Origin: a virus | Reading direction: 5' to 3' (one strand) | Virus record (IMG/VR): IMGVR_UViG_3300010160_000003 | Span: 1-64,000 of that record | Length of the DNA: 64,000 nt | In this document: piece after piece, positions 12,426 through 31,866 of the stretch | How positions within the stretch are numbered: position 1 is the first letter of the stretch | Layout of the letters: each line of letters opens with the position of its first letter | The notes under the pieces: generated by a model | Database searches by the model: none | Seen by the model: the letters and a program-made list of their open reading frames with translations, nothing else | What the model was told of the DNA's origin: nothing | Translations under genes and position numbers: made by a program

Positions 12426-12599
12426 TTAGTTATTCTCCTCTAAACTTGATTCGTAATCGTTAATGCCTACGCTATAGGCTATTGGGTCGCACTCTTTTAG
12501 TGCTCTGGAGGTATCGTATTCGTACCCTGCAATAATTACAGTTCCATAGACATCATTTAGCATTTCGTCATATGCTTGTTCTAATTCATATTGATTCAT
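12426..12599 (-). CDS. Small early protein (57 aa)
   Basis: MNQYELEQAYDEMLNDVYGTV...ALKECDPIAY; ATGA overlap with the upstream ORF. Confidence 0.55.
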   Translation of the reverse strand: MNQYELEQAYDEMLNDVYGTVIIAGYEYDTSRALKECDPIAYSVGINDYESSLEENN

Positions 12600-12772
12600 T
12601 TGATTTGTCCTCTCTTGCGTAGGATAGCCTCAACCTGCGCTAGTTGTTCAGGTGTAGATGTGCGATAGGCTTGCACACTTTCTCTAATCCAAGGGGATTG
12701 AGTCATAGCCTTTTCATGGGCTTCATGGCGAGCAATAGTTTGCTCTGTTTGTATTCTGTTTAGTGTATTCAT
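12596..12772 (-). CDS. Small early protein (58 aa)
   Basis: AGAAAGG Shine-Dalgarno; downstream of the leftward promoter at 12827-12848. Confidence 0.55.
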   Translation of the reverse strand: MNTLNRIQTEQTIARHEAHEKAMTQSPWIRESVQAYRTSTPEQLAQVEAILRKRGQIK

Positions 12773-13210
12773 TAGATGAGTACCTTTCTTTTTTTAGTAG
12801 TTAAACTTTAACTATCTAATACTGTAAGTATAGCACCGACCACTGACATTTTTGCCCTATTCTCGGGCGTGTCGGTAAACTATTTTTGTGATGTTTATCA
12901 CATAAAATTTCCCCGGCCAATTTTGTCAAGTCAACACACCGATAAACCTCATATCGTTACGTAATCGTTATAATTCCCCATATAATGTGATGTACTTCAC
13001 AGTCGCAAATGTCCGTTTTATACCGATACTAGCCAGTAGAATGTCAGACCCCCCTGCTATAATACTACTATAAAGAAAAACAAGCGGTAAAGAAATCCGC
13101 TAAAGAAAGGTCATAAAAATGACACTACAAGAATATAAAGAAATGGTAGAGGCTCAGCGTAAAGCAAGCCTAGCCGTAGCCCTATCCGTACTAAAGAAAG
13201 AGGTCAAATA

Positions 13211-13384
13211 ATGACTATAAAAAATCTAATCCATGAGCATAATCCTATGCTCTCCGCTATCTCATCAGTAGGAGATGAGCAATTTACTTTCTGCCAAGAT
13301 TGCGAGCAGAATATCTCTCGCTACTATGGCGACCACGACCCTGAGCGGTTACCTATGTGGACAGATTGGTATTTAACTAAATGA
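13211..13384 (+). CDS. Small CxxC early protein, paralog of 13914-14096
   Basis: EHNPMLSAISSVGDEQFTFCQDCEQNISRY...ERLPMWTDWYLTK. Confidence 0.65.
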   Translation: MTIKNLIHEHNPMLSAISSVGDEQFTFCQDCEQNISRYYGDHDPERLPMWTDWYLTK

Positions 13385-13740
13385 GTATTTTTAATTTTGA
13401 GTTATTCGTAACCGTTGAGGCAGATGATTTTGAGTCTGCACTTTCTTGGTTAAAAGTTTCACCCCTTGAAAATCAAATTGATTTTGAGGTTATTGACTAC
13501 ACAGAACTTAAAGGAGAATAAATAAATGGAAAAAGATATTTTTGGATTTGCTGAAGCAATTGAATTAGATAATCTTAGCGATAAAGATTTAAAAATTGTT
13601 GAATTAATTTTTAAAGATTTTAAATAACTAAAAAAGTTTTTTAGAGAATATCAAAACTCTAAAAAATAACCGGGCCGTTTTGTCAAATCGACACGCCGAT
13701 CTTTTTAAGATTGTTACGTAATTGTTATAATTTCCCCTAG

Positions 13741-13762
13741 TTATCCACAGAAGTTATCCACA
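13741..13762 (+). promoter_or_regulatory. Tandem DnaA boxes
   Basis: TTATCCACA at 13741 and 13754. Confidence 0.6.
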
Positions 13763-13913
13763 GTTTTGAAAGTGTGACATAAAACACACGAAAAATCGTC
13801 TCACTATTTGGATTTACTGGCTAGTAATGTCATAAATGTCAGACCCCCCTGCTATAATTGCAGTATAAAGAAAATCAGGTACAGAAATCCTGAATTGAAA
13901 GGTAGGTCACTAA

Positions 13914-14096
13914 ATGACTACAATAAGTAAAACAACAGTATGCGTAGAGCATAACCCTAAATATTCTGCTATCTCAGAAGTATCAGATACACAATACACT
14001 TTCTGCCAAAATTGTGAAAACAATATAGACCGATTTTGGTTAGACTTTGGCTTAGAGCGTATGCCTCAATGGTCAGAGTGGGCGGTGACTAAATGA
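13914..14096 (+). CDS. Small CxxC early protein
   Basis: GAAAGG Shine-Dalgarno; follows the promoter at 13837. Confidence 0.65.
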   Translation: MTTISKTTVCVEHNPKYSAISEVSDTQYTFCQNCENNIDRFWLDFGLERMPQWSEWAVTK

Positions 14097-14420
14097 GTAT
14101 TTGGACTAGGCTTGCTACTGTAAACGATTACCCTAAAGGCATGATGAACTTATGCCCTTGCGGTCAAGTGGTATTAGCCCCTGCGCTATACCATGAGGGG
14201 CAGTCATACATGACTAACCCTAATAAATGTAAAGAATTATTTGAAGGAGAAAATAAATGAGTACCTACGTACCAATTAAATCAGTATGCGGTGCAACTAG
14301 CACCAGCATAGATATCTATGACTTAGACCTTAACCCTCATGGGGTTATCTGTTGTGATAATTGCAAGTCTATCGTGTTGTGCCGTAAGGCATGGGACTTT
14401 CTATACAAGGGGGTTAAGTA

Positions 14421-14615
14421 ATGGCTACAATTACAATAGGCGGATTAGGGCAAAAAATTGCTGTTTACTGTTTCGTGTGTTCTGGTAAAATGTCACACTG
14501 GGCGATTGCTTCAAATGGCGTTCGCTATGAGTGGCAGTGTAAAGATTGCGAAATCTCTATAAAATCAGATAGATTTGGAAATGCTAAATTACTAAAAGAA
14601 ATGGAGAATAAATAA
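14421..14615 (+). CDS. Small zinc-ribbon protein
   Basis: CFVC...CKDC. Confidence 0.55.
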   Translation: MATITIGGLGQKIAVYCFVCSGKMSHWAIASNGVRYEWQCKDCEISIKSDRFGNAKLLKEMENK

Positions 14616-14948
14616 ATGAAAACACTTAAAGAAAAGTTAGATGCAGTAGCGTTAGAGTTAGAGCCAGTACTATGGGATTTACTAAATGAAATTGAGGAGA
14701 AATAAAAATGGATCTATCTTTTTTTTATAGTGGAAATGCACTTTTGTTTTTATCTCTTGGGTTAATTGCTTATGGTTTTATTCTCTTTGCAAAGGGGGAA
14801 TAAAATTTGCCCGGCCCGTTTTTTGACTGGTCAAACCTTTTACGTACGATGTGATTTTTCTCACATGCGACACGCCGTGTTTAGATTTGACTTTTTGACT
14901 TTTTTTTGCTATACTTGCAGTATAACAATTAAATAAGAACAGACAAGG

Positions 14949-15001
14949 CAATGAGCCTAGCAAATAAGTGTGATGAGTATCACAATGAGCCTAGCAAATA
15001 A
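14949..15001 (+). repeat. 19 bp direct repeat flanking a CRP-type site
   Basis: CAATGAGCCTAGCAAATAA at 14949 and 14983. Confidence 0.85.
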
Positions 15002-15067
15002 ATGCCCTAAAATGTCAGCCCTCAATGGTAAGATAGTCTTATCACTAAAACGAAAGGAAGTCACTAA

Positions 15068-15253
15068 ATGACTTACACTATAAAACTAGAAACCTACTCA
15101 GGTTCAATAAAAAATATCCCCCTATCCACTAAAGGACAGGTTGCAGATTTTATCTCTAACTATCCTAATGCGTTACCCGTTGGCGTGTCCGTAAAAATAT
15201 CCTGCGACTTGCTCGGTATTCGCGGAACACTACGCGGAAAGGCAATTCTCTAA
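15068..15253 (+). CDS. Small early protein
   Basis: GAAAGGAAG Shine-Dalgarno after the promoter at 15013. Confidence 0.6.
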   Translation: MTYTIKLETYSGSIKNIPLSTKGQVADFISNYPNALPVGVSVKISCDLLGIRGTLRGKAIL

Positions 15254-15421
15254 TGATAAATTCAGTAATGACAATACCTTGCGAGGAGTGCCACTCAACA
15301 GGTTTAATTTTTTTTGGCGATAACGATAATTTTGATACCGAAACTTGCGAGTGCGATTTTGGTATTGAACAAGACTTATATTTTTTCAACAACAACAACT
15401 AACGAATAGGAAATAAAAAAA

Positions 15422-15631
15422 ATGACAGTATCAATTAAACACAATCTCGCTTTTGTAACTGAAGTAGACGAAACTCATCCAGTAGGTATTCGCCTGCTTG
15501 CACTCCCTGATGAAATGCGAATCCTTATGCTTGAATCAATGCTAAAGGAATTCCTTATCCCAGCACTTGGGCCAGTAATTGATAAAATTAACGAAAATGG
15601 CTCATACGCAATTCTTAAGGTAGTGGAATAA
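15422..15631 (+). CDS. Small early protein
   Basis: Shine-Dalgarno present; operon context. Confidence 0.55.
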   Translation: MTVSIKHNLAFVTEVDETHPVGIRLLALPDEMRILMLESMLKEFLIPALGPVIDKINENGSYAILKVVE

Positions 15632-15814
15632 ATGATGACACGCAAGGACTATGTAGCAACTGCTGAAATTCTAAATGGATTCAAAGATATAATCTTAGAT
15701 GAAATTACTTTTGCTGATTTGGTAGATGAATTTTCTCTAATGTTTGAAAGTGATAATCCAAAATTCTCACCAACAATTTTTGAAACCGCTTGCTATAAAA
15801 ATGCAGATGAATAA
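15632..15814 (+). CDS. Small early protein
   Basis: MTRKDY...DNPKF...F..AC pattern; directly follows the previous ORF. Confidence 0.6.
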   Translation: MMTRKDYVATAEILNGFKDIILDEITFADLVDEFSLMFESDNPKFSPTIFETACYKNADE

Positions 15815-15883
15815 ATAAAATAAAAGACCTGAGCAAGTCTGTGCAAAACTGCTCACTTTTTTATTGCAAAAAAACCCGGCCCG

Positions 15884-15904
15884 TTTTCCACAGGTTTATC
15901 CACA
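15884..15904 (+). promoter_or_regulatory. DnaA box pair
   Basis: TTTTCCACA at 15884 and TTATCCACA at 15896. Confidence 0.55.
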
Positions 15905-16061
15905 GGCAGGTTTAAGATACGCTTACGACACGCCCGAGATCTTGTGAGATTAATCACACCGAAAATGTATCCACATTGTGAGATTTATCCTCTACGATTT
16001 GAAAATGTCACCCGTATCTGATAGGATTACATAGTAATAATAAATTAACTAAAGAAAGAGG

Positions 16062-17577
16062 TTGCCCCCTATGGCTACTAAAGCATATTCTATCGTAGAT
16101 TTACTTGAAGGTAAATACTATCGCTCACACTCCCGTTATATTGACGGACTAATCACTTACGCAGAAAAGCGTGACTCAGTTTACTATGGCGAAGGCTTTG
16201 AGGCTTACCTTGTAAAAGTACGCCCTACCTATAAGGGATTCCCTGATTTGCCCAAAGCAGATTTTTATGCTACGATTGCAGTAAAGGTTGGAGAATAATA
16301 ATGGACTTCTATGATGACTACTATGAAACAGATATGATACGCCCAGATGTAAAAGATTGCTATTGCAAACTTCACTCAATTTGTACTAACTGCATGAAGG
16401 GATATAACTAATGGGAAACTTATTTGATGAGATTGGCACTTGCTACACTTGCTATGATGAAGGACTAATAATGAAAGATGAGTTTATTACAGATTTTTGC
16501 AACGATTGTGAAAAAGGCTCAGTCCTTGCTAATGAGTATGCTATATGGTATGCTGAAAATGAAATGAACGAATACACTAAAGAAATGGAAAATGCATAAT
16601 GGAATATCTATACGCAATAACAGTATCCTATGACGGCAACACACCTCATTGGACAGGTCGCTACTCAGACGCACTAACCGCCGTTGATGAGTTTAATAAG
16701 CATATTGATTGGGGATTTGCAGATGAATACGCAACAGTTAATTTATCTGAGCCAAGTGGAAAGATGCACACACGCACTTTCTATCGTGAAGGCAGAAGGG
16801 TTGTGACTAAGTAATGGAAATTTTTGAGTTTAATACTTTCATAGATGTCGAGGCAGAGTCGTATGATGAAGCCATTGATGTCTTTCAATTCCAATTAAAG
16901 TATGGAATAAATAAAGATAATGTCTATGTCGCAGACATAAAGCAATTAACTAACAACAACGAAAGCGTAGAGGTATAAATAATGGGAAGCGTAACAGCAA
17001 TTGGATTAGCAGATAGCGTATTAGATTTAGAAACTCAATTACTCTATCACTTGAAGGGTAATCACTATCCACCAGTACCAGCAGAAATGGTAACACCATG
17101 CATTGAAGCCATTGATGCAGCCTATGATGAAGATTTTAACCGCATGATTGACATGCCAAAGGTCGGTGACTTTCAGATTCTCTATAAAGACTCAACGCAA
17201 GCACCAGCGTGGGCAATTATTGAACAACACCACTTGGATTGGTTTATCACACCAACAGAGGAGGACTAATGACAGATTTTTATATTCCCCACTCAAAGTA
17301 TTGTGATTGCAACGAATGCCTAACTATTGAGGAGAATGAATAAATGTCTGATACAATAAAAAACGTGGAACTTAGATTTGCTGATAACTTAACACCCTCT
17401 CAACTTATGCCAGGAGATCTAGTCAAGGTTGATGGTGAGTGTGTAACTATTGAAACCCTTACAGAAAATAAACACGGGTTTAATATTTATGCTAGAGATG
17501 ATTTTAACGAAGAGGTTCATTTTTATTTATTTGATGATGAAACTATTGAGTGGTATGTATTTTTTGAAGAAGAATAA
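16062..17577 (+). CDS. Operon of small early hypothetical proteins (16062-16298, 16411-16599, 16599-16814, 16982-17269, 17344-17577 and shorter ORFs)
   Basis: Tightly packed co-oriented ORFs with Shine-Dalgarno sites and TAATG overlaps after the promoter at 16006. Confidence 0.6.
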
Positions 17578-17847
17578 TCACTAAACTAATTTTTAATCCT
17601 TCCCATCACAAAAAACCGCCCGGCACATTTTTTATAGAATGTCAAGTATTTACGTAATTTGACATTTTTCCCCATGTATGCTAAGATTAATTTATGAAAA
17701 CAAGAAAAAACCCCGAGGAATTGCGTAGACTTATGGAATTACGCCGTAGTAATGCAGCCTCAGCCGTACCCTCAAAGAAAAACTATTCTAGAAAAAATAA
17801 ATGTCAGTCCCTTATGCTAGAATTAAAGAAAGAAAGCGAGTCCCCTA

Positions 17848-18570
17848 ATGACTAAACTACTAAGAAGCAAAGATAGAAAAGTAACTAATGCCGTATCCCC
17901 TAATGGTAAGACTGCCACTATTGCTAATACTTTTGGTCTTCCCGCAGGAAAAGCATATTCATGTCCTGGAGCCACAACAGTATGCGAAAGTGTATGCTAT
18001 GCAGGAAAGTTAGAAAAAATATTCCCTAGTGTTAAAGTTAATCTATTACACAATTGGGATTTACTAAAAAATGCAGACGGTGTTACTATGACAACACTAC
18101 TTAATGAAATGATAGATGAGTTTATTGTTGATTGTGAAAAGAAAAATGCAGAAAAGTTATTCCGTATCCACTGGGACGGAGATTTTTTCAATGACACTTA
18201 TGCAATGGCATGGCGTGAGGTTATTCTTAATTATCCTACCGTTCAATTCTGGGTATACACTAGAGTTTCATCTGCGGCTCTTATTCTAAAGGGAATACAA
18301 AACCTATCTCTCTATTTTTCTGCAGATAGCGAAAATATCAAAACTGCCGTTGACTTAAAATTAAATAATGGTATTCGCATGGCGTACCTTGCTAAGACAT
18401 TCGCAATAGGACAAGCAGACATAAAAGAAATGATAGGTAAGCCTAGTGCTAAGTGTCCTGAGAATAATAAACAAATTCCGCTAATCTCAACCAAAGGTTC
18501 GGCTTGCGTTTCTTGCTCATTGTGTGTATACTCTAAGAGTGACATAATTTTTTCTAGTAGTAAGAAGTGA
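17848..18570 (+). CDS. GP88-family protein (Cys-cluster, radical-SAM-like fold)
   Basis: FGLPAGKAYSCPGAT..CESVCYA, FRIHWDGDF and FWVYTR motifs. Confidence 0.65.
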   Translation: MTKLLRSKDRKVTNAVSPNGKTATIANTFGLPAGKAYSCPGATTVCESVCYAGKLEKIFPSVKVNLLHNWDLLKNADGVTMTTLLNEMIDEFIVDCEKKNAEKLFRIHWDGDFFNDTYAMAWREVILNYPTVQFWVYTRVSSAALILKGIQNLSLYFSADSENIKTAVDLKLNNGIRMAYLAKTFAIGQADIKEMIGKPSAKCPENNKQIPLISTKGSACVSCSLCVYSKSDIIFSSSKK

Positions 18571-18895
18571 GATAAAATGGAAGGCTATAAAATATTTTTA
18601 TTTTTTTTATTATTTTTATTTATTTTATTTTTAAACCAGTGAAAACTGGCCCGGCACAAAAATATTTAAAAGTCAAATTTTAACCTTTAAGAAGATCAAT
18701 TTATTTCCCCGATTACGTATGAGATTAATCACACCCAAAAACCTCACTAGGATTTGCTTTTATGACATTTTTATGTCATACTTAGGGTATAAACAAATAA
18801 CAATTCCAAATAGTGAGATTTTTAGGTATTCAACTTGAAAATGTCAGTAGGAAATGTTATACTTAAAATATCAACTAAACAGAAAAGAGAAAATC

Positions 18896-19060
18896 ATGTC
18901 AGTAGCAACCGCAACTTATCGTGTAGGAGATACCTATACAACACAGAAGTCAAAAGTAACAGGAGTCATTGAGGAAATCACAACTCTTGCAAATGGTAAT
19001 GTTCGTGTTAAGTTAAATGTAGAAGGCAACACTCGCTACACAACTTGGACAGCAAAGTAA
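18896..19060 (+). CDS. Small SH3-like early protein
   Basis: YRVGD...GVIEEI...VRVKL; start MSVATAT has a Shine-Dalgarno. Confidence 0.55.
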   Translation: MSVATATYRVGDTYTTQKSKVTGVIEEITTLANGNVRVKLNVEGNTRYTTWTAK

Positions 19061-19141
19061 TCTAATTACTTATTCCTGAGTATGAAATAAAACTACTCAC
19101 GCAATACCCCCTAATAATCCACCAAAGAAAAGAGAAAACAA

Positions 19142-19564
19142 ATGGCTAGAGCAAAAGCAATAAATGTAAAAATCCCAACAGTACGAGTAATCGCAGGACT
19201 AGAGGAAGCACTCGCTACCCTAGAAGCAGACTACGCAACACAATCAGCAAAAGAAGCAAAGTACGAAATTGCTCGCAAGGCTTGGCAAAAAGAAGTTCAG
19301 GACTTTGCTATCGCAAACATCAGCAAGGCAGAAAACTTCCGCACCAACTTCCGTTCTTGGTCAAACAATCTCAACATTGACTTTGACTTGACAGTATTAG
19401 AAAAGGACTTGCCTAAAGAGCCTGAGCAGGACTACGAAGTAATCCATCAGCACACTTATCGTGAGTCAAAGAAAGAAATCACAAACGCAATTCGTCTGTT
19501 AAAAATGACAGATGAGGAAACAGTAAGCACAAGCACTTACAATGCTATTGCTCAGTATCTCTAA
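19142..19564 (+). CDS. Hypothetical early protein
   Basis: 140 aa ORF with Shine-Dalgarno. Confidence 0.7.
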   Translation: MARAKAINVKIPTVRVIAGLEEALATLEADYATQSAKEAKYEIARKAWQKEVQDFAIANISKAENFRTNFRSWSNNLNIDFDLTVLEKDLPKEPEQDYEVIHQHTYRESKKEITNAIRLLKMTDEETVSTSTYNAIAQYL

Positions 19565-19777
19565 ATAATCCAACACCTGAGTATGTGTATAAACTGCTCA
19601 CACAATTAAATGATGGTCTGTCCGTTCCGACGGCATAGGTAAGAGTGTGACCCTTTAACCAAAGGGTATTGAGTCATAACGGCACACCGCCATCCACCCC
19701 TCCCCAGGATCCAGGGAAATTGACAAATGTCAGACCCTCATAGTATAATTAATATAACCAACAAGAAGGAGCCCCAA

Positions 19778-20275
19778 ATGGGATTAGATATGTACCTTAG
19801 TGCAAGAAAGCACTTAGAAAAAATCAACTGGAAAGCACTACAAGGAAATGATGAACTATCTTATTCATCTCCTGAAGCCGTATATCCTAAGTTTAATGAC
19901 CTAATGGAAATCACACAACTATCAGATGTTGCTACAGATATTTATGGAGCAGAGGTATCAGTTACTTGTGCCTACTGGCGCAAGGCTAATCAGATACACA
20001 ACTGGTTCGTTACAAATGTTCAAGGCGATAACGATAACTGCGGAGAATACTATGTATCACAAGATAAACTAACAGAATTAATGGTTTTATGCGAACACGC
20101 ACTTGAAAATAAAGACCCAGCACTACTACCCCCACAAGAAGGATTTTTCTTTGGGGGCACAGATATTGATGAGTGGTATTGGAATCAACTAAAGAATACT
20201 ATTACTCAGTTAAAGCGTATCTTTGCTTTCCCTGAAATTAATAATCTCTCATTCTACTATAACTCATCTTGGTAA
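19778..20275 (+). CDS. Conserved phage protein (MGLDMY / YWRKANQIH family)
   Basis: MGLDMYL, YWRKANQIHNWF, GFFFG and YYNSSW motifs; AAGGAG Shine-Dalgarno. Confidence 0.7.
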   Translation: MGLDMYLSARKHLEKINWKALQGNDELSYSSPEAVYPKFNDLMEITQLSDVATDIYGAEVSVTCAYWRKANQIHNWFVTNVQGDNDNCGEYYVSQDKLTELMVLCEHALENKDPALLPPQEGFFFGGTDIDEWYWNQLKNTITQLKRIFAFPEINNLSFYYNSSW

Positions 20276-20337
20276 TTGACAATTGTCAGTACCCTGCGAT
20301 ATACTTAAACTAACCAACTAACAGAAAGAGGCCCCCA

Positions 20338-20751
20338 ATGGAGCAAACAGTAATACCAGCAACAACGCAAGAATTTCTACAATCTCAGGTATCAATTAAA
20401 GATGAGCGTATTGCTCAACTAGAAGAGCATATCCAAAAACTAACACAACGTTCATATACAGATTCTGCAGAGCGCAACCGTATGGTTGAGGGTATGCAAG
20501 AGTGGACACTTAATGAACTAGAAAATGAAGACATAACAGAAGAGCAAGCAGAAGCAATTGCTGAAATTATGGGCTTTGAACTTACAAAAGAGTTTGAGGT
20601 TGAAGTTACTGTTCTTTATTCTGTTACAGTTAATGCACGTAATGAGGAGCAGGCTACTAATGCAATTCACGATATTGATTTTGATACCGTTGACTATAAC
20701 TCAGACTCAATTCAATACTTGTCATCATCAATTGATAGAGTAGATATTTAG
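20338..20751 (+). CDS. Hypothetical coiled-coil early protein
   Basis: ORF with Shine-Dalgarno after the promoter at 20284. Confidence 0.65.
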   Translation: MEQTVIPATTQEFLQSQVSIKDERIAQLEEHIQKLTQRSYTDSAERNRMVEGMQEWTLNELENEDITEEQAEAIAEIMGFELTKEFEVEVTVLYSVTVNARNEEQATNAIHDIDFDTVDYNSDSIQYLSSSIDRVDI

Positions 20752-21012
20752 TAGGGGGCTACTAATAGACATGCCGAATGTCTATAAACTAGGCAAGGGA
20801 CCTAAGCATTGTCCACGTAAACTGCTTATTTTTTTTATTTATTCAGTTGCATAAAATGTGGGCCGGGGCAGTTGTGATCAATATCACATTGTGAATTACG
20901 ACACAGTTACGATATGCCCGAATTGCCCCATGTCTGCTTATACGATTTGACTTTGTCAGCCCTGTCTGCTAAACTTAGTATAACAATCAAACAGAAAAGG
21001 AAAAATAAACTC

Positions 21013-22029
21013 ATGGCACATGAACTAGAAACACAAAATGGAGTAGCCTCTTTCGCTTCATTTCGTGAACCTGCTTGGCATGGATTGGGTACTGTATTCA
21101 CAGAGGAAAAATCTACATCAGAAATGTTGGCTTCTGCCAATCTTAATGGTTGGAACGTTCGTCTAGAGGATTTAGTGACCCCTTCACATTTATCAAGCGA
21201 CAAAGAATATCAGTATGTCGTTCGCACTAACCCTACTGATAATTCTCAAACCGATATTCTTGGTGTTGTCGGTGAGCGATACCATGTAATGCAAAATGAG
21301 GATTTATTCTCATTTGGAGATAATATCCTAGACGGCGGTGGTCGTTGGGAAACTGCTGGCTCAATCAAGGGTGGTCGTGTTGTATTTGGTGCGTTAGCAC
21401 TAGAGCGTGAAACTATCCTAGACCCTAATGGTGTTGCTGATAAGGTAAAAACTTATTTACTTATTAACACTTCCCATGACGGTTCTATTGCAATTCAAGC
21501 AAGCATAACACCCGTTCGTGTTGTGTGTGCTAATACTCTCAATATGGCACTCAACACTACAAAAAAGAAAAATGGTATCAAGCAATCTTTCAAGATTCGC
21601 CATACGCAAACCGCACAAGGTAAAGTGCAAGTGGCTCGTGAAACTCTTGGGCTTGCTAATGCATACATGGATTCATTTGACATCATGGCAAAAACTTTAT
21701 TTGCTACTGAGGTCAATGCTAAAATGTTCAATGAGATTATTCTCGCTTCATATCCTAAGCCTGAAAAAGATGCTAAGGGTGCAATTAAAAAGTGGGAAAA
21801 TAAAGTTGATACTATCAACGACATTTACACAGGCGAGTTTAACGGCATGATTGCTGGTAATGCTTGGGGTGCGTTCAATGCACTAACTGAGCGACTAGAC
21901 TGGTATCGTTCTGCTCGTGGTGGTTCTAACGAGTCAATTCTTGCAAGTGCAAGTGGATTTGACCCTGCAATTAACGCAGAGAAAAATCGTTTGCTCAAAG
22001 TTGTAAAAAATGTAATGCAACTCGCATAA
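21013..22029 (+). CDS. DUF932 / LGT_TIGR03299 family protein
   Basis: MAHELE, PAWHGLG, ETAGSIKGGRVVF, NTSHDGS and PVRVVCANTL motifs. Confidence 0.85.
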   Translation: MAHELETQNGVASFASFREPAWHGLGTVFTEEKSTSEMLASANLNGWNVRLEDLVTPSHLSSDKEYQYVVRTNPTDNSQTDILGVVGERYHVMQNEDLFSFGDNILDGGGRWETAGSIKGGRVVFGALALERETILDPNGVADKVKTYLLINTSHDGSIAIQASITPVRVVCANTLNMALNTTKKKNGIKQSFKIRHTQTAQGKVQVARETLGLANAYMDSFDIMAKTLFATEVNAKMFNEIILASYPKPEKDAKGAIKKWENKVDTINDIYTGEFNGMIAGNAWGAFNALTERLDWYRSARGGSNESILASASGFDPAINAEKNRLLKVVKNVMQLA

Positions 22030-22067
22030 CAAAATAATCCTGAGCATGATTGAAAACTGCTCCGCAT

Positions 22068-22144
22068 GATTGCGTAGAATAGTTGGTTAATTCGCTAGCC
22101 TGTCACGCTAGAGATCGTGGGTTCAAGTCCCATCGCAATCGCCA
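22068..22144 (+). tRNA. tRNA-Asp (GTC) with encoded CCA
   Basis: Acceptor GATTGCG/CGCAATC; anticodon arm CTAGC-CTGTCAC-GCTAG; T-loop TTCAAGT. Confidence 0.9.
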
Positions 22145-22287
22145 ATAAAATGGGCCGGGTCCGTAACATTTTGTTATAAAACCAATTACGATAGATGACA
22201 TTTTTCCCCAAACCTTATTAAGAAGAACTTGACATTTCCCCCAAACCATGCAATAATTAATACATAACCCACTAACAAAGGAATTTC

Positions 22288-25200
22288 ATGAGAGAACGCA
22301 CAACAGGATATATAGGTAATATTTTAGACGGAAAGAAACTAGCCAAGATTGCCAATAAAATTTACAAAGCGCAATATAACAGTGTTAGTGAATGTACAAT
22401 AGATAACTTACTACTAATTGAACTTGAAGAGAAGAATGTTTTTGGAGATTCAAAGTATGCCGTTGTATGTACAGAGGGTGTTGGCTGGGAGCAAGATAGT
22501 TATGGTTGTCTTGAAATCCCGACAAATGTTGGTGCTATGGGTAACTGGAATGGCCGTGTATTCATATCAGTAGAGGTAATTGGACAATGTTTAACAGGAC
22601 AAACACAGGATATCTCAAAATACATTCGTACCTTTGGAGATAGATTAGATAATAACTGTTACCTATGGCAATGTAAAATGTCAGTCCTACCTAGTACAAT
22701 ATCAGTATGACCCAAACAACATTCAAACCATACACAATATCAGAACTCGTAGATGAAATCTACAACGACAACTACTCACATCTTGAATTCATGGATAACA
22801 TGGGTGGAGATTGTGACTGCGTAATCCATACTACTATGCAAACCATCTTAGAATACTGGGGAGAATAATGTGGACTACCTATAGTTATGTTTGTACTAAC
22901 TGTGATGCATTGATCCAGGTCACTACTCAAGTTACCCCTGAAGAAAATGCATCCTGTACTTGTATGCGTGGGGCCTGGGTAACTCGTACTGCCATGGAAC
23001 CTAATGTGAGCAAGGTCACACCTCCAAAACTTGTAAAAATCAACACCAACCCGTATAATTAATATATGGACCTAAGTACACTAACCGAATATCTAAAGAT
23101 ACACCTAATCAGTATCCAACAGGACTATGATAAGTTACCTGACGGAGACACACATTCTGTTGCCCACCTTAATGGACAACAACTAGCCATTAACCATATA
23201 CTAAGAGTAATCAATGACTGAGAAGTATCCTTTCATACCCGAATATTTGACAAAGGCTTTAGAAGATACATCTATACCTCTAATTGACCTAATGCACGGC
23301 TACCTTAAACAAGAAATGCTGGACACTGAAGAACTAATGAAAGATAACAATGACAGATTTTTTCAGGGATATATAGAAGCCTTGACAAACTGCTATGTCA
23401 TGACCTATAATTTATCTATAGACCGTAAAAACATAGAGGAGACCCAATGACACCACAAGAAATGTTAGAACAGATGATTGACAAGGCTACTTTAGATTTC
23501 TTGGAGATAACCAAGGAAGAAGAAGACGGCGACTTTGGAGATGCAATGCTATCTATGGAACGCACAGAGGCTAATGGTTTTCTAGAAGGTTTGTCAGTGG
23601 CATACCATATAATCTTTGATAAGGTATATACCTCACCAGTAGGATTGGATAACTAATGCCTAAGTGTTTAGATTGCAATAACACCACAAGATTTTGGTAT
23701 CAGGAATTAGGAAATAAACTTGGTATCTATAATGAAGACGGTACCCTTGATGATGTAGAGGACGACTACTACGATGAAGTAGAAGGTGGCACTTGTGCTG
23801 AATGTGAATCTGCAAACATTGAGGGGAAGTTATAATGGATAACTTTATTGAAATGACAGAAGACGAATGGATTGCTACATACAAACCAATCAAAAATCAT
23901 ATAGATACAAATGCTTCTTTTAATGGAGAGATGTTTGAGACATATGGAGAAGAAGTAGAGTTTGTTAAAGCCCAAGATGAGAATCGCATTTGGATGTATG
24001 GAGACGGAGACGACGGTGGGGGATATGTATGGTCTGGTTGGGGATTTGTAAATAGAATAGGATACTTTATCACTGAGGTTCCTTTCCCTGATAATACTAC
24101 TATACAGGTTCAACTTACCATACCGTTTTATTGTTGTGAGAATTGTGACTCAGAACTAGAAGACCCTGATAATCTAATTAGAGATGCCTTTGATGAGGCA
24201 GACTTGCAAAAATGCCCTAAATGTGCTACGATTGATGAAATGACCCTAGTTGAATTGGAGAAGTAAATGATAGAAGGACTCGAAATAGCAGGATATTTTT
24301 CAGTAGACTCAGGACAAGCAATGGTAGGCGACCCCTGCTATCTAGATGATTGGGATACTAATAAAAATGATGAATGGAATCTAGAAGGTAAAGAAGGAGA
24401 GTATTCTTATCATGGTTCTAGTGCTACTACACTAACAGACTCATTCGGACAACTAGGCAACTCTACTGCCGTAGTATTTCAAACGGGATATGGAGACGGA
24501 CTCTACCCTGTATATGTTAAGTTAAATGATGATAATCGTGTTTCAATGGTTGTCATTGACTTTGAGGATAATGTAGAGGTAAACAACTAATGGGGGCACG
24601 TATTAACTTTGTCTTCAAAGACCGTGAGGGCCGCCCTGCAGTAGTCTTATACAGTCACTGGGGCCAAGATGAATGGCAACGAGACATAGCAATGGCCCTA
24701 GACCATGCCCGTCCTAGATGGGGTGATGAGTCTTACTGTACACGTATGATTATTAGTTATTTAATGCAAGATAGCATTCTAGATGAAACTGGATTTGGTA
24801 TTTATGCTATTAATGATACATTATCTACCCTAGGAGATCAAACCGTTATAATTGATATCATTCAAGAAACTATTATTGACGGTAATACTAAGGTAGACTG
24901 GGACTTATTTGTACAGGCATACAAGCCTGTCGCTGCGCTAGTGGGGGGGTAGGGTCACTCTCGCACTTACGGTGGGGGGCCAACTGTGGTGGGTTGCTCC
25001 CCACCTTCTTTTTTGGTATAATAGTAAAGAGAGGAACTCATGTATAAAATTACTAGAAATAATGTAGCCACTAATGAAGAAAAGATTGCTAAAAAAATAT
25101 CGGTACTTTTATCAGATTTCACTATTGACTTAGAAAAGGTTGGATACTATTTAGCAAGAGCGACACCCTATTTACTTTTTTGCAGAAGCCTAGAAGTATT

Positions 25201-25917
25201 AGAGTCAGCACAATTTCAGAAAGACACCATTGAACAACAGAGAATAGGATATGATAATGACAGACTTTTTTATTAAGTGTCAGATTTTAGGGGAACTATA
25301 TGAAAACTATAAAGAAGAGTTTGAAGATTTAATTGAAATAAATGACATTGGTTTTCCAATAGCATATCTAAATACACAAAACCTAGTTATACCAACTTCT
25401 CCAGGAATGAGATATGTAGAAGAGGCATGGGATATGCTATTACTAGACCTTGTGGTTGAAGATAAAGGTTTTGAAGATTTAGATGATTTGTTGGTTTTTG
25501 CAAACTATGAATGAAATCTAGCCCTGCGGGGCCGGGATTTTTTATAAAATTTTAAACCATCAAACCATATTTCCTAAAACCTTATTACGAAGCATCCAAA
25601 TTTTTTCCCCAAACCTCATCTGCTATACTTGAACTATGGCTAATTTTGAAACGGTATGTGGAATTCTAGGTGAACTACACTTTAACTATGGTGATAGTAA
25701 AGACTTTAGAGGTTTTGTAGAGTTTAATGATCTTGGCCTTCCCCTGGCTTTTTTAATAAATGAAGGTTTGGTAGTAGAGTTATCAGATGATGGACGCAGG
25801 TATGTTATAGATACCTTTGATATGTTTGTTGCTTCCCTCAAAGTAGATCCTGATGACATCATGGACGGCATGACGCTTGATGAACTTTTGGAAATCGCTG
25901 CAGCATCCCAAACATAA
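22288..25917 (+). CDS. Cluster of small hypothetical proteins (22288-22710, 22868-23062, 23214-23450, 23447-23656, 23835-24266, 24267-24590 DUF4241-like, 24590-24952, 25040-25276, paralogs 25251-25514 and 25636-25917)
   Basis: Co-oriented overlapping ORFs; GYGDGLYPVY motif in 24267-24590; shared CxILGEL...NDxGxP motif in the last two. Confidence 0.6.
24970..25014 (+). terminator. Intrinsic terminator
   Basis: GGTGGGGGGCCAAC / GTTGCTCCCCACC stem followed by a T-tract. Confidence 0.65.
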
Positions 25918-26820
25918 AACCTTACAAGACATTACGAAGCCCTAAAAACTTTTCCCCAATCATCGACAAACCTTCAAACCTTCATGCCAGGATATAAGGT
26001 TTGTTATTCCTATAGAGGTATTACGAACTCTCTTTATTTATCCCCCGCCCTGCAATCAATCTAAGGATATTCAAACATTCTGCAGCGGGGGATCAAAAGA
26101 TATACCAAACCACACAGTATAAAACACATTACGAATAACATATATTTTTCCCTGGTTTTCTAGATATTTATCAAACCTTTCAAACCTTTATATGATTTAA
26201 TTGGACATTTTCTCCACATTTGTGTAGGGTTTTAGAGTTGACAAATGGAAGGTTTGGGAGTATAATGCCAGGGTTTGTAAGGTTTGACAATGTAAAGGTT
26301 TTATGATAGGAGGTTTTGGGGTGTGAGGTTTGAAGGTTTTGGGGTGTGAGGTTTGTCCGTTAGACATTACGAACGCATCTGTATAAATGCTCCATTCCCC
26401 ACTTCACTCCACTTTCCTCCACTTTAAGATAAATCTAAAAAATATCAGTAACATTTATCCTGTGGATAACTATCCTAAACCTGTGGATAACTCTATCAAA
26501 CCACGCCTTCCTCCTGTGGATAACTTCATCAAACCTCTGCATAAACCTGTGGATAACTATCAAACATATGTAATAGATATGTTCTATAACCTGTGGATAA
26601 CTCCTAGAGTTACTCTGATAACTTTGTGATATTATGGGTATATGAAACCTTTTCTGATCATTATGCTTGGCCTATTTCTATTCTTAAATTACATGGCTTA
26701 TCTCCAACAAATCCGTATGAGTGGATAAAACCAGGGTATATAAACCTCTGGCTATCTGGCATATGGGGCTATAAGGCTATCTGGCTATAGGGTTTGTATC
26801 TTATACTGGGGATTATGATG
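25918..26820. repeat. Non-coding, repeat-rich putative replication origin
   Basis: About 20 AAACC(T/A) pentamers in both orientations, TTACGAA repeats, duplicated AGGTTTTGGGGTGTGAGGTTT, GGCTAT repeats and five DnaA boxes. Confidence 0.6.
26459..26602 (-). promoter_or_regulatory. Five co-oriented perfect DnaA boxes
   Basis: CCTGTGGATAACT 13-mer; TGTGGATAA core at 26461, 26482, 26515, 26548 and 26592. Confidence 0.8.
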
Positions 26821-26857
26821 TCTTGACTTTCCCCCGATTTTTTGATATGATGGTTTA

Positions 26858-27484
26858 ATGAAGCAATGGAAGCAAAGAACCTGGTTTCAGGCTCCCGATG
26901 GCACAAAAGGATCTAATGCCTTAGTTGCTAAAGAGGCTGGAGTTACTACTGGAACAGTTACCAATGTATTTAGTTATCCTGAAAAAGTAATACCAGAGAC
27001 TAAAAAAAGGGTTTTAGAGGCAGTTAAAAAACTTAACTATACCTACAATGTAATGCCAACAATGAAAATGTGTACTGTCTGTAAGGTTGCCAAACCATTT
27101 GAAGATTTTTATGATGGCTATAAAGCCAAGAAACAAAGAGATGTTACAAATAAAAAATATCTTCATTCTAGATGTAAAGATTGCGATCATGCCAGAGTTA
27201 AGGTCTATCATAAAAATAATAGGGTTAAAGTTAGAAAACAACAGTTAATTTCTCATAGACGTAGAGAGTATGGGCTAACTGAAGAAGAATACAATAATAT
27301 GGTTTTGTCTCAAAATAACATGTGCGCTATCTGCAATAAGCCTAATGATAGAACCTTACATATAGACCATGAGCATGTAACAGGCAAGGTTAGGGGCTTG
27401 CTATGCTCTAACTGTAACCTAGGTATAGGACTGCTTCAAGAAGATCTTATTATTCTTAATAGGGCTATTAAGTACTTATCTTGA
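26858..27484 (+). CDS. LacI-type HTH fused to recombination endonuclease VII (HNH) domain
   Basis: VAKEAGVTTGTVTNVF...ETKKRVLEAVKKLNY, then CxxC pairs and HIDHEHVTGKVRGLLCSNCNLGIG. Confidence 0.8.
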   Translation: MKQWKQRTWFQAPDGTKGSNALVAKEAGVTTGTVTNVFSYPEKVIPETKKRVLEAVKKLNYTYNVMPTMKMCTVCKVAKPFEDFYDGYKAKKQRDVTNKKYLHSRCKDCDHARVKVYHKNNRVKVRKQQLISHRRREYGLTEEEYNNMVLSQNNMCAICNKPNDRTLHIDHEHVTGKVRGLLCSNCNLGIGLLQEDLIILNRAIKYLS

Positions 27485-27608
27485 TATACCGTGCAAAAGT
27501 AGGCTGTTAACCAATGGTGCCCGTGTAGGGCAGTGGAAGGTTTGTTACTCTATTATCGCCGAACATTAAAAACTTGACAACTTATCCTCCAAATGGTATG
27601 ATAGATAT

Positions 27609-27833
27609 ATGACACACGATGAATTGCTCGAATTCATAAATAGCCCAACCTGTCGGAATAGTCGAACCTTAGAGACTCCATACGCAGCCCTTCGTGCAGT
27701 AGTGGAATTGCATAAGCCTTCTTTGGTAAATGCCGAAGAGTGCGAAACTTGCACACTACACACAGATTATTCTGACAGGTATATTGCTTATCCTTGCGAA
27801 ACCATTCAAGCCATAGAAAAGGAGTTAACGTGA
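27609..27833 (+). CDS. Hypothetical protein
   Basis: ALRAVVELHKP...CxxC...YPCETIQAI motif; TTGACA promoter upstream. Confidence 0.6.
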   Translation: MTHDELLEFINSPTCRNSRTLETPYAALRAVVELHKPSLVNAEECETCTLHTDYSDRYIAYPCETIQAIEKELT

Positions 27834-28507
27834 GTAGCATAGATACTTGCTGGAATTGCGGTAACTCTGATATTGAAGCAATAGAAAAAGTTGCTCTGGC
27901 AATTCAACAAAGACATGATAATGGATCTTACTTTGATAAGCAATGGTCAAACCATCATGGACTAATGCGTTGCGATTGTGTTGAATTAATACGATTTATA
28001 AGGAACTTAAAATGAAACTACACTATGGGAAAATGACTGCCAACTATTCTTTTGGGGTATATGTTCATGACTGGGGATACCCTATTAAACATGAATGGGA
28101 AATTGGCTTATACCTGTTCCATTGGTATATAGGAATAGACTTTTTTAAATGACCTGTACAAAATATGGCTGTAACTATGAACTAGACCTTGATGGTAAGG
28201 TAACTTGTACTGTATGTGGTGCAATGGATGATGATATGAGTCCAACAACATTAGATATGTTTGAGGCTCAGGTAGATTTTGAATGAAGCGTTGTATACAT
28301 GTATATAAAATTGTGCATGAAGACATATGTTCACTATGTGGTAGGGACACCCATGAAACAAACTGGGTACAAGAATTAAAATATAGACGAGAGTATGTAG
28401 AAAAAGTGGGCTTATTCTATAAACGTTCTGTGTGGTGGAGTATATAGGTTATAATAGGCTTATGCCATGTATACATTATAAAGCAATTAGTGTGGTAGAA
28501 TGTATAT

Positions 28508-28960
28508 ATGAATGAAAAATTAATTGAACTATTAAAGGCTCTTCTTGCAGATACTGTAGCCTTAAAGTTTAAAGCACATGGATACCATTGGAATGTTGAA
28601 GGAGATGATTTTCCTCAAGCACATGCTTTTTTTGAAATGATTTATAATGATTATGAAGAAGCAATTGATGGCTTTGCAGAAAACCTTCGTCGTTTAGATA
28701 CATATGCTCCATTTAAACTTTCACGTTTTGTAGAACTATCAAAGAATGTAGCAGAAACTGATGTTAATTCTGATTTTGTAGTAATGGCTGGCGATCTTCT
28801 TATATCAAATGATGCAGTTTTAGTAGTTTTAAAAGATACATTTGATGTGGCTGATATGGCTCGTGAACAAGGTGTTGCAAACTTCCTTGCAGAACGTATT
28901 GATCAACATCAAAAATGGCATTGGCAACTTAAGGCAGTTACTAAGCCTTCAATGAATTAA
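28508..28960 (+). CDS. dps: Dps / mini-ferritin DNA-protection protein
   Basis: HGYHWNVEG-DF..AH..FE..Y..IDGFAE ferroxidase signature and H.K..WQL. Confidence 0.9.
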   Translation: MNEKLIELLKALLADTVALKFKAHGYHWNVEGDDFPQAHAFFEMIYNDYEEAIDGFAENLRRLDTYAPFKLSRFVELSKNVAETDVNSDFVVMAGDLLISNDAVLVVLKDTFDVADMAREQGVANFLAERIDQHQKWHWQLKAVTKPSMN

Positions 28961-28965
28961 TAATT

Positions 28966-29334
28966 ATGTCTACAATAGTAGATATTGATGGAACACTACT
29001 AAGTAACGGTACACAACCTATTCAAAGAGTAATTGATTATGTAAATTCACTTCCAGGTTCATTAATAATTGTAACTGGAAGAAATGAATCTCAAAGGTCA
29101 GAAACAGTTAAAGCATTACGAGCAGCAGGTGTTAAGTACTCTCGTCTTATTATGAATCCTGGTTCTAGTTCTGATACCGCTAAATATAAATATGAAGTAG
29201 GTCTAAAACTTAAAGGATCAGTTAATCTTGCTATTGATAATAATCCTACTATGAGAGCAGCATATGCTAAAGCAGGCATACCTACAAAAGATCCAGCAAC
29301 TTTACCAGATATGAAGAAGTTTTGGACAATCTAA
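28966..29334 (+). CDS. HAD-family phosphatase (PNK 3'-phosphatase-like)
   Basis: DIDGTL, VTGR and IDNN motifs. Confidence 0.8.
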   Translation: MSTIVDIDGTLLSNGTQPIQRVIDYVNSLPGSLIIVTGRNESQRSETVKALRAAGVKYSRLIMNPGSSSDTAKYKYEVGLKLKGSVNLAIDNNPTMRAAYAKAGIPTKDPATLPDMKKFWTI

Positions 29335-29533
29335 TTGTCTTTGTCTAAAAAAGAAACACAGGCTCTTCAACAACAATATTTCAATAAAGTAAAATTAAAT
29401 AATAAAGAACAATGGAGCCTATGCTATATATGCTCTAAGCCTAGATATAACTTTACTACTGTAGAAAATATATCTATGCCTGTGTGTGAGGAACATTCTT
29501 GACATACCGTTCAAAAATTGGTAGACTTAGTAT

Positions 29534-30004
29534 ATGCAAACTTTTTTGCCAGATAAAGATTATAAACTCTCTGCCCAAACCCTAGATAATAAGCGACTCA
29601 ATAAACAGATCCTAGAGGGCTATCAGATACTCAAAGTATTATCAGGTGCAACAGAGTCAGGGGCTTGGCGTAATCACCCTGCAGTGCTCATGTGGAAGGG
29701 CTCAGAGACCCATCTTATGAACTATGTCAACCATATGGTAAATGAGGCAGACATTCGTGGCATCAAGACAGTTAACAATGTATTAAACCTAAAAATTTTA
29801 AAAGCGGGGTTTGGAAAAATGTGGGGTAAAAATAAACCTATTTGGCAAAAACCAGAACATATCTCTCGTGTTATAGAAAGCCATAGGGCTAATCTTTATA
29901 GGAAAGATTCTATTATCTATGCCGAGTATCAACTCAATACCGCCGATCCATGCTGCGAAAAGTGTTTATATTATTGGCCTACTCATAAAGAAAGACAAAC
30001 TTGA
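29534..30004 (+). CDS. Pyrimidine-dimer DNA glycosylase family (MSMEG_6728-like)
   Basis: MQTFLP...LDNKRLNKQILE...WRNHPAVLMW...SHRANL. Confidence 0.8.
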   Translation: MQTFLPDKDYKLSAQTLDNKRLNKQILEGYQILKVLSGATESGAWRNHPAVLMWKGSETHLMNYVNHMVNEADIRGIKTVNNVLNLKILKAGFGKMWGKNKPIWQKPEHISRVIESHRANLYRKDSIIYAEYQLNTADPCCEKCLYYWPTHKERQT

Positions 30005-30453
30005 CAAACTTGTTATCAAACTGTATAATGGATATATGAGCATAGACGAAATGACATTACGAGAAGAGATTGCCAAGGCTATTGAAAATATTTCTTTGGG
30101 AGAAGATAATGACCAACTAAATGCATTAGGTATGCGTATGCTTGCAGCAAAAGTTGCAAGGGGAGAAAATAACTACATGACAAACATGTTTAAAAGCAAA
30201 AATGACTTTGAATAAAAACGAATGCTTAAAGTGTGAAATATCATACAAAGATCCTCTATTCTGGGAAACTCATCAAACAATGAGCGATAACAAAATTTGG
30301 TGTGCATATGCCAAAAGAATGTAACCATACTTGGTATATGCGTGAACTTGGTATACAGTGTACTAAGTGTTTAATTCTTTGGGAGAACAATGAAAGAACC
30401 TAAGATAATCCAAATGGATTGGCGATCATTAGGCTATTGGCCTGTTTGGAAAA

Positions 30454-30801
30454 ATGGAAAGAAAGTGTGGGTACCTAAAAATGATGAATCATTCAACAAA
30501 GATTCAAAGAACTAAGATATGGCCATTACGATGGATAGGTAATTTTCTTGGTGGCTATGCAGTTAATCATTTAGTTAAATGTTTTGATTACGATGAAGAT
30601 GATAAATTGGAGTTTGCTTATAAATACCACGCAAAAATGTGGAAGTACCTCAATAAACCTTATGAACGTTGGGGAACATACTATAAACTAGACTTGGACG
30701 GCTGGAAGAAAGAACTAGATAAGATAAAAGAAAATGTACAGAATCAGAATTGGGATGACTATGATGAAGATGGCATAGCATATTGGGAAAAAGATGAGTA
30801 G
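30454..30801 (+). CDS. Hypothetical protein
   Basis: ORF in a run of small plus-strand genes; true start probably about 30481. Confidence 0.5.
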   Translation: MERKCGYLKMMNHSTKIQRTKIWPLRWIGNFLGGYAVNHLVKCFDYDEDDKLEFAYKYHAKMWKYLNKPYERWGTYYKLDLDGWKKELDKIKENVQNQNWDDYDEDGIAYWEKDE

Positions 30802-31330
30802 AACACTTATTTGTCCAACCTGTAATAAAGAATGGGAACTTCGTTGGGGAATCTTTGCCCATGAATCATTATCTAGACATATGAGGGAACATGATTAATC
30901 TTGAGATCCCTGATCCATTTGAAACTTTTGTATCAAAAAAATATATTAATTATAAAGGGTATGTACATGATTTTTTTATTAGAGAATGGTCTTATAGGTG
31001 TTTAACTTGTAAGGATAATATGTCTGCTCCATCCCGCAAAATTATGACAAAGATTAGATTATTTCATACAAGAAATGAGTGCACGGGTGGATATTAATTA
31101 CTTTATTGCAATAAACCTTCAAACCTGATAGAATGGATACATAAGGAGAAGTATGTTTTGTAATTATTGCGGGAATAGATTAGAACACGGTGATTGTAAT
31201 TATTGTAATGATAATAACAATGCCCTTAGAGAATTTGAGGAAGAAGATGATTAATGCTTTAGTTTTAATCCCTGCATTTATTGCTGGGTATGTAGCATGT
31301 TATTTTGTTATGACCTATAAGGTCAAATAA

Positions 31331-31693
31331 ATTAAGGTTTGTAGCAAATGTGGGCTTAACTTAGATAAGTCCTTTTTCTCTCCATCTTCTGGTGGGAAAT
31401 ATTTAAGGCCAGAGTGTAGGTCTTGTGCTTCCAAATTAGCAAAGCAAAGGCTAGAACTAAGGAAGGTTTGGGGATATCCAGAAGAAGATCACATATGCCC
31501 TATTTGTTTAAAAAATGAACAAGAACTCAAGGGTACTGGAGGAAATGCTAGTATCTGGGTAGTAGATCATGACCACATAACAAATAGTTTTAGAGGACAT
31601 ATATGCCACAATTGTAATCGTGGTCTTGGTGTATTCCAGGATAATGTTGATAGATTAGAAAGAGCAATTAGTTATCTAAGTTCGGAGCGGTAG
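31331..31693 (+). CDS. Endonuclease VII-type HNH protein with no ATG/GTG/TTG start (not in ORF track)
   Basis: 120-codon frame IKVCSKC...ECRSC...CPIC...VVDHDH...FRGHICHNCNRGLG; stop codon lies inside tRNA-Ile. Confidence 0.75.
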   Translation: MKVCSKCGLNLDKSFFSPSSGGKYLRPECRSCASKLAKQRLELRKVWGYPEEDHICPICLKNEQELKGTGGNASIWVVDHDHITNSFRGHICHNCNRGLGVFQDNVDRLERAISYLSSER

Positions 31694-31756
31694 CCAAGTG
31701 GTAAAGGCATCAGCCTTATATGCTGAAGATCGTGAGTTCAACCCTCACCCGCTCTA
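31684..31756 (+). tRNA. tRNA-Ile (TAT)
   Basis: Acceptor GGAGCGG/CCGCTCT; anticodon arm TCAGC-CTTATAT-GCTGA; T-arm GTGAG-TTCAACC-CTCAC. Confidence 0.85.
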
Positions 31757-31757
31757 C

Positions 31758-31833: not shown

Positions 31834-31866
31834 CTTTGGTTCAAATCTATATGATATAATTAAACT

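Follow-up and report, generated by a model that had tools for sequence, protein, structure and literature searches.

A cluster of twelve promoters with a PafBC-like motif in the genome of a predicted actinophage

Virus record IMGVR_UViG_3300010160_000003, an uncultured lake phage, raises the question of what controls a block of about 45 small genes, nearly all of them without a known family. The block is served by twelve promoters in which a hexamer, almost always TGTCAG, stands exactly 10 nt before a -10 box (TAnnnT), an arrangement that resembles the promoters read by PafBC, a WYL activator of Actinobacteria. Two issues arise: (i) whether these sites form a genuine promoter class and (ii) which protein, of the phage or of its host, reads the hexamer. 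The record is complete (100,390 bp, 36% GC, with direct terminal repeats, 109 bp exact); its bases 1 to 64,000 are the window, that is, the whole stretch of DNA analyzed here.

Addressing the first question, we found 12 matches to TGTCAS-N10-TANNNT in the window, whereas 100 shuffles gave 1.61 on average and never more than 6. All lie inside 10.8 kb (12.8 to 23.6 kb), 11 on the plus strand and one on the minus strand, diverging at 12.8-13.0 kb; a scan of the whole 100,390 bp yielded zero additional matches. When the spacing was varied from N4 to N17, enrichment was seen at N10 only (11+1 matches). Other spacings gave 0-3 matches, except N16 (5+2), which is an echo of a second TA...T directly past the -10 box. 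On the plus strand between 12.8 and 24 kb, 10 of 11 copies of TGTCAG are coupled to a -10 box at N10. The hexamer is exactly TGTCAG at 11 of the 12 sites and TGTCAC at the twelfth. Taking TAnnnT as -12 to -7, it occupies -28 to -23, and we refer to it as the -26 box. Most sites have a TG-extended, near-consensus -10 box (TGnTAnAAT), and five of the 12 also carry a -35-like TTGA(C/A)N with a 17-18 nt spacer (Table 1). Every site faces a gene start; at nine, the ATG lies 28-55 nt past the -10 box and has a purine-rich ribosome-binding site. The first-pass annotation, made from the letters of the sequence, had listed these promoters with an invariant 10-nt spacer, had placed most of them just ahead of a Shine-Dalgarno-led open reading frame (ORF), and had read several as dual-mode promoters with a TTGA(C/A)N element. 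The positions and strands, the spacing, and the gene placement all held, and two-mode action is possible at the five sites with a -35-like box.

Two sites required separate consideration. The variant at 16006 is a promoter, being in the same kind of intergenic module as the others and having TTGAAA and TGn, but its membership in the class is weaker, as relatives show no enrichment of TGTCAC. The TGTCAA site at 11437, which the first-pass annotation had added as a further variant, exists in the sequence but was not counted as a member: the G6>A change is not enriched in relatives (6 versus 26 in the control), and a canonical leaderless promoter, TGGACA-N17-TGCTATAAT, overlaps it. At the other end of the block, the ATG that follows the 22679 site lies so close to the -10 box that a leaderless mRNA is expected. 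A generic sigma-70 scan of the block showed no enrichment (52 promoters found versus 50.6 expected); standard promoter scans would thus miss this class. A megablast search of cultured phages with the block found zero matches.

The same class is abundant in related phages. A query with the GP88 protein returned more than 590 related IMG/VR stretches, of which 80 loci (1.3 Mb, GC 35-41%) were kept. They contain TGTCAG-N10-TAnnnT 652 times in forward and 58 times in reverse orientation. Here, too, N10 is the only enriched spacing; the others mostly remain at or below 25 matches, and the 80-187 matches at N5, N15, and N16 are echoes. Aligning 548 unique sites gave the profile A(A/T)(A/T)-TGTCAG-t-C-C-c-n-n-a-T-G-n-T-A-n-A-(A/C)-T; it lacks a -35 consensus, and positions 8-9 are G or C in about 85% of sites, against 36% genome GC. 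A test that made no use of the hexamer, on 2931 extended -10 boxes in the relatives, recovered TGTCAG at that offset 455 times (runner-up, 35) and revealed a second, separate class, in which TTGACA or TTGACT occupies the usual -35 position. When single letters of the hexamer were varied, enrichment over a shifted control was confined to A5>G (TGTCGG, 34 versus 3) and A5>T (17 versus 5). The orthologous promoter of the GP88 gene is kept in 29 of the 33 relatives with a placed gene start. Its hexamer and spacing are fixed while spacer letters and flanks vary. The class thus consists of genuine promoters maintained by selection and not of repeats.

PafBC promoters, also described as RecA-NDp or recA P1-type promoters, are used by Mycobacterium, Streptomyces, and other Actinobacteria via sigma adaptation (Sci Adv 2021, PMC8635444). 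Their motif as determined in vivo, tGTCgg(N10)tA(N3)T, spans 22 nt and has no -35 consensus; the PafB helix-turn-helix reads the -26 element (-23 to -28) via a GTC triplet, and sigma reads the -10 box (PMC8635444). PafBC is triggered by binding single-stranded DNA (PMC11804915). The phage sites have the same TGTC(A/G)G at -28 to -23, exactly 10 nt before TAnnnT, and are likewise asymmetric; the first-pass assignment to a PafBC-type motif agrees with the published one in hexamer, position, and gap. A -35 consensus is lacking over the 548 unique sites, although five of the 12 sites here have a -35-like box. Shared as well are the G/C-rich positions 8-9, a TGG extension in some sites, and a host of the right phylum. 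The 9-mer TGTCAGTGG occurs in the RecA-NDp region of Streptomyces coelicolor SCO6735, TGTCAGTGGTGGCCCGTACGGT, quoted inside a primer (PMC5087735). It is found in full in the 12827 promoter and again at 23592, and it characterizes nearly all of the 14-16 sites in two more distant relatives (L317 and L326). The phage sites also depart from host PafBC promoters. They are phage-borne, with 12 copies in 10.8 kb, and precede small genes without annotated function, not repair genes. Their hexamer is nearly invariant, most of them add a TG-extended near-consensus -10 box, an A/T-rich stretch lies just upstream, and some have a -35-like box.

The host is predicted to be an uncultured freshwater actinobacterium, in line with the actinobacterial setting proposed in the first-pass annotation and despite the 36% GC of the phage. 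The phage encodes a WhiB protein, for which all 170 of 170 phage-database matches are to actinophages (of Streptomyces, Mycobacterium, Rhodococcus, Gordonia, and similar genera). Identity to Streptomyces phages of Stanwilliamsviridae is 54% for DnaE, and identity to Mycobacterium phages is 56% for GP88. Leaderless promoters, of which the genome has many, are a hallmark of Actinobacteria. Five freshwater metagenome runs contain at least half of the sampled words of the block. A non-actinobacterial host, suggested by the low GC content, is ruled out by WhiB, the actinophage relatives, and the leaderless promoters. A scan of genome contigs for WhiB gave only one 4-kb contig (CAYZIG010000046.1) from a "Candidatus Saccharibacteria" bin; its WhiB is 67% identical to that of the phage, eight other genomes sampled from the family of the bin contained zero WhiB, and the contig is probably a mis-binned phage piece.

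The host side was examined by scanning a metagenome collection for TGTCRG-N10-TAnnnT located 63-123 nt ahead of a low-GC sequence that encodes the RecA N-terminal motif. The scan gave 15 matches, each of which proved to be a real recA gene. One of these contigs (48% GC) has TGTCAGTAGCGAAAGTTAAGTT, with TGTCAG. Six others (50-52% GC) have TGTCGGAAGCAAAAAGTATTCT, with TGTCGG, and a ribosome-binding context, gaaagaggacccaaATG, that is much like that of the phage. Three of the six (L102, L104, and L107) were long enough for scanning, and each has a second site, TGTCAGAGCCAACGAGTAGATT (TGTCAG-N10-TAGATT), ahead of a clgR-like gene that lies about 750 bp upstream of recA, placing two PafBC-type promoters in tandem in one locus. 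Both box variants thus serve DNA-damage genes in moderate-GC actinobacterial contigs, of which one or more come from a freshwater sample; these organisms represent a candidate host type only.

Potentially addressing the second question, we searched the complete phage genome for a protein that could read the box. There is no WYL domain, which excludes, for recognizable WYL proteins, the phage activator outside the window that the first-pass annotation had offered as an option. Lacking also are sigma region 2 (region 4 gave a match at E = 0.03 only), MotA, and AsiA, and no helix-turn-helix family was identified in the phage proteins scanned against Pfam or PHROGs. The promoters are not of a phage-sigma type, given the lack of sigma region 2 and a box spacing of 10 nt versus the 16-18 nt needed.

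Arrays of the same geometry were also detected outside the clade. When the virus collection was scanned with N10, arrays of 5-16 sites per locus were found, whereas N11, the negative control, gave single matches only and no fetched stretch with more than two N10 sites. Specifically, G010 (62 kb, GC 44%) has 8 sites on one strand and shares 8 of the 157 predicted phage proteins, G013 (22 kb, GC 45%) has 11 sites on one strand and shares 3 of 157, and G011 (GC 54%) has 4 sites. Arrays in fragments that share so few proteins fit a host factor better than a clade-specific one, although fragments of this type are 17-37% complete and could share a phage factor. A TerL search in five array-holding records had no match and is uninformative, the records being 15-55% complete.

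On balance we consider it somewhat probable that host SigA RNA polymerase and host PafBC read the twelve sites by sigma adaptation. The PafB helix-turn-helix would read TGTCAG at -28 to -23 while sigma region 2 reads TAnnnT. Basal firing without PafBC would come from the TG-extended near-consensus -10 box, and in five of the 12 promoters also from the -35-like box, and would be boosted once PafBC is loaded with single-stranded DNA. Sources of the single-stranded DNA could be UV damage in lake hosts, the processing of phage DNA ends, or replication and recombination of the phage. Genes for a Dps/ferritin-like protein, a pyrimidine-dimer DNA glycosylase, and a RecA-like protein form a UV/DNA-damage toolkit in the window, and the phage additionally encodes a Cas4-like nuclease and an SNase-like nuclease. 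Such genes make DNA damage and single-stranded DNA plausible in the sunlit-water life of the phage. The result would be the coupling of the roughly 45 small accessory genes to the LexA-independent DNA-damage alarm of the host. The motif, its geometry and conservation, the actinobacterial host type, and the lack of a recognizable phage factor are results of the analysis, whereas the binding of PafBC, the inducibility, and the timing are inferred.

Several observations weigh against reading by PafBC. From a strong extended -10 box (TGnTAnAAT), SigA RNA polymerase should be able to fire unaided, making strict PafBC dependence doubtful, and late genes of the phage use extended -10 boxes alone. At five of the 12 promoters, PafBC insertion could face competition from the -35-like box just upstream. 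TTGACA lies 2-3 nt upstream of the box in five of the 12 sites here and in most sites of lineages L353 and L313, and the resulting TTGACA-AA-TGTCAG of those lineages resembles an inverted repeat fit for a dimeric binder. The hexamer is stricter than the degenerate host consensus (691 exact copies versus about 160 one-letter variants in all), which could indicate a different, more selective reader. PafBC, which requires single-stranded DNA, is an awkward trigger for immediate-early genes. Finally, three Streptomyces phages of Stanwilliamsviridae, the closest cultured relatives and those with the closest DnaE, have 0-2 motif matches and lack the motif class, so the motif was not inherited with that lineage.

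An alternative reader would be a small DNA-binding protein of the phage, unannotated or carried in the virion, that reads TGTCAG as an activator of RNA polymerase or a repressor of the block, with the likeness to PafBC a matter of coincidence or mimicry. Phages commonly run their temporal gene classes themselves, and the hexamer scarcely varies. Over 40 of the block proteins match no family, and the inverted repeat of some lineages fits a dimer. Extended -10 boxes suffice elsewhere in the genome, so the box need not be an activator site. We nonetheless regard this explanation as unlikely. None of the regulator families sought in the phage (WYL, sigma, MotA, AsiA, and, among the proteins scanned against Pfam or PHROGs, helix-turn-helix) was found, a repressor site does not require an exact 10-nt distance to the -10 box in at least 650 sites, and the distant array-bearing fragments, although incomplete, share almost no proteins with the phage. 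Nor does this reading explain why the phage sites agree with the host motif in hexamer, spacing, A/G degeneracy, and TGG extension alike. Rather improbable, in our judgment, is that SigA promoters are tuned without PafBC, with TGTCAG serving as an intrinsic element of the spacer or as the target of another host factor (such as another WYL or helix-turn-helix regulator). The same modules do hold sites of host-regulator type, namely seven TGTGA-N6-TCACA palindromes and DnaA boxes, and the block may be wired to several host proteins. Yet we know of no actinobacterial factor other than PafBC with such a box at this distance. The PafBC literature, for its part, gives exactly this geometry (PMC8635444).

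The sites might instead act as a decoy, 12 per genome and multiplied by replication, that soaks up PafBC and blunts the damage or defense response of the host while the genes run on their -10 boxes alone. The motif match is the same for a decoy as for promoters read by PafBC, the -10 boxes are strong and self-sufficient, and pafBC has been linked to phage resistance in mycobacteria by a study that PMC12848934 cites. A decoy would need neither the fixed 10-nt link nor the right orientation and placement before genes, yet nearly all plus-strand copies of TGTCAG in the block are so linked, and the sites are confined to one gene block, not spread genome-wide. We consider it very unlikely.

Other known systems also invite comparison. 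In T4 middle promoters an asymmetric box (MotA box at -30) likewise lies about 11-13 nt upstream of the -10 box and replaces the -35 element, and an adaptor re-aims the housekeeping sigma factor (MotA/AsiA sigma appropriation). However, the T4 box is TGCTTtA, MotA and AsiA are supplied by the phage (neither family occurs here), and the hosts are proteobacterial. The stoperators of cluster A mycobacteriophages are asymmetric 13-bp repressor sites that contain TGTCAAG. They, too, are TGTCA-containing, asymmetric, present in many copies, oriented with transcription, and found in actinophages that share the GP88 family. Stoperators differ in being spread genome-wide, in having no fixed distance to a -10 box, and in needing a temperate-phage repressor; the sites described here all keep N10 to a -10 box within a stretch of 10.8 kb, TGTCAA shows no enrichment, and the scanned proteins include no recognized repressor family (an integrase was not looked for). 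DriD of Caulobacter, a WYL activator, also senses single-stranded DNA and activates promoters independently of LexA, with a different binding site, architecture, and host phylum.

More broadly, it is about evenly balanced whether a host sigma-adaptation promoter has been taken over by a large and globally abundant group of freshwater actinophages, which uses PafBC as a switch or timer for an accessory-gene block, probably one for host takeover or counter-defense. If so, the block genes would come on with the DNA-damage/defense regulon of the host, for example in UV-stressed lake cells or once replication makes single-stranded DNA, and these would be the first phage promoters to exploit a WYL activator. 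The genes for which PafBC and sigma adaptation are known are exclusively DNA-repair genes of hosts, and our literature searches on PafBC or RecA-NDp with phage found no report of such promoters in a phage. With 8-16 such promoters per genome, viruses would be seen to tap the LexA-independent alarm directly, without a regulator of their own. Hundreds of natural promoter variants would define the requirements of PafBC. The promoters would also provide a clue to the hosts of uncultured lake phages and link sunlight and UV stress to lake phage gene expression.

Table 1. Positions of the gene block, its -26-box promoters, and other features of the window
Feature	Position	Strand	Remarks
Gene block	12426..24952		Matches to any family: GP88 and DUF932 only
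-26-box promoter, TGTCAGTGGTCGGTGCTATACT	12827..12848	-	Drives ORFs 12596-12772 and 12426-12599; diverges from 13042 promoter
-26-box promoter, TGTCAGACCCCCCTGCTATAAT	13042..13063	+	Then ORFs 13119-13211 and 13211-13384
-26-box promoter	13837..13858	+	22-mer identical to 13042; then ORFs 13914-14096 through 14421-14615
-26-box promoter, TGTCAGCCCTCAATGGTAAGAT	15013..15034	+	Then ORFs 15068-15253 through 15632-15814
Variant promoter (TGTCAC)	16006..16027	+	TTGAAA -35 (17-nt spacer), TGn; then ORFs 16071-16298 through 17344-17577
-26-box promoter	17802..17823	+	Promoter of GP88-family gene 17848-18570; ATG 24 nt past -10 box
-26-box promoter	18842..18863	+	TTGAAA -35 (17-nt spacer); then short ORF (first ORF uncertain) and 19142-19564
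-26-box promoter	19728..19749	+	TTGACA -35 (18-nt spacer); then ORF 19778-20275
-26-box promoter	20284..20305	+	TTGACA -35 (18-nt spacer); then ORF 20338-20751
-26-box promoter	20954..20975	+	TTGACT -35 (17-nt spacer); then DUF932 gene 21013-22029 and tRNA-Asp 22068-22144
-26-box promoter	22679..22700	+	Within end of ORF 22288-22710; ATG of ORF 22707-22868 6 nt past -10 box
-26-box promoter, TGTCAGTGGCATACCATATAAT	23592..23613	+	Inside ORF 23447-23656; then ORFs 23656-23835 through 24590-24952
Tandem-promoter modules	13714-13731, 14887-14915, 17659-17687		Second promoter 100-150 nt upstream of -26-box promoter
TGTGA-N6-TCACA palindromes	12887, 12986, 14850, 14969, 15943, 20873, 23005		CRP/GlxR type
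DnaA boxes, TTATCCACA	13741, 13754, 15896	+	Paired, in two intergenic block modules
DnaA-box array	26461-26600	-	Five copies
Leaderless canonical promoters	25621, 26843, 27594, 28493, 29519, 31852		Examples from 25621-31860 and elsewhere; ATG 6-7 nt past -10 box
Dps/ferritin-like protein	28508-28960
Pyrimidine-dimer DNA glycosylase	29534-30004
Glycosyltransferase, nucleotide-sugar epimerase, and methyltransferase island	32231-38518, 39467-40381		GlcNAc-transferase-like gene adjoins
WhiB	40609-40893	-
174-aa protein	46509-47033	-	Weak Pfam Proteasome match
RecA-like protein	56892-57905

Three kinds of promoter can be distinguished in the phage genome. The -26-box class is confined to 12.8-23.6 kb. 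The second kind, canonical TTGACx-N17/18-TGnTAnnnT, is found at 24-31 kb and across the replication and packaging arm, and many of its members are leaderless. The third consists of extended -10 boxes alone, ahead of structural genes. At three modules of the block a second promoter, extended -10 or canonical, stands in tandem upstream of the -26-box promoter, and the words TTACGTAA, GACACGCC, and CCGGSCCG recur near these modules. All seven perfect TGTGA-N6-TCACA palindromes of the 100-kb genome are within the block (12.9-23.0 kb), mostly 60-150 nt upstream of a -26-box promoter. The five-copy DnaA-box array at 26.46-26.60 kb may be the phage replication origin.

Environmental contigs offer a further view of the block. 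A DNA run includes contigs that join 13.8 kb to other modules; together with the identical 22-mers at 13042 and 13837, these suggest that promoter modules recombine within the population. One metatranscriptome run contains five short, 100%-identical block contigs, one of which crosses the 18842 promoter; such contigs reveal neither starts nor strand and may reflect DNA carry-over, and they were not used as evidence.

Outside the block, the island of glycosyltransferase, nucleotide-sugar epimerase, and methyltransferase genes has the lowest GC content of the window (29-35%). The 174-aa protein with similarity to the Proteasome family (E = 4e-5) has homologues in the distant fragments G011 and G013.

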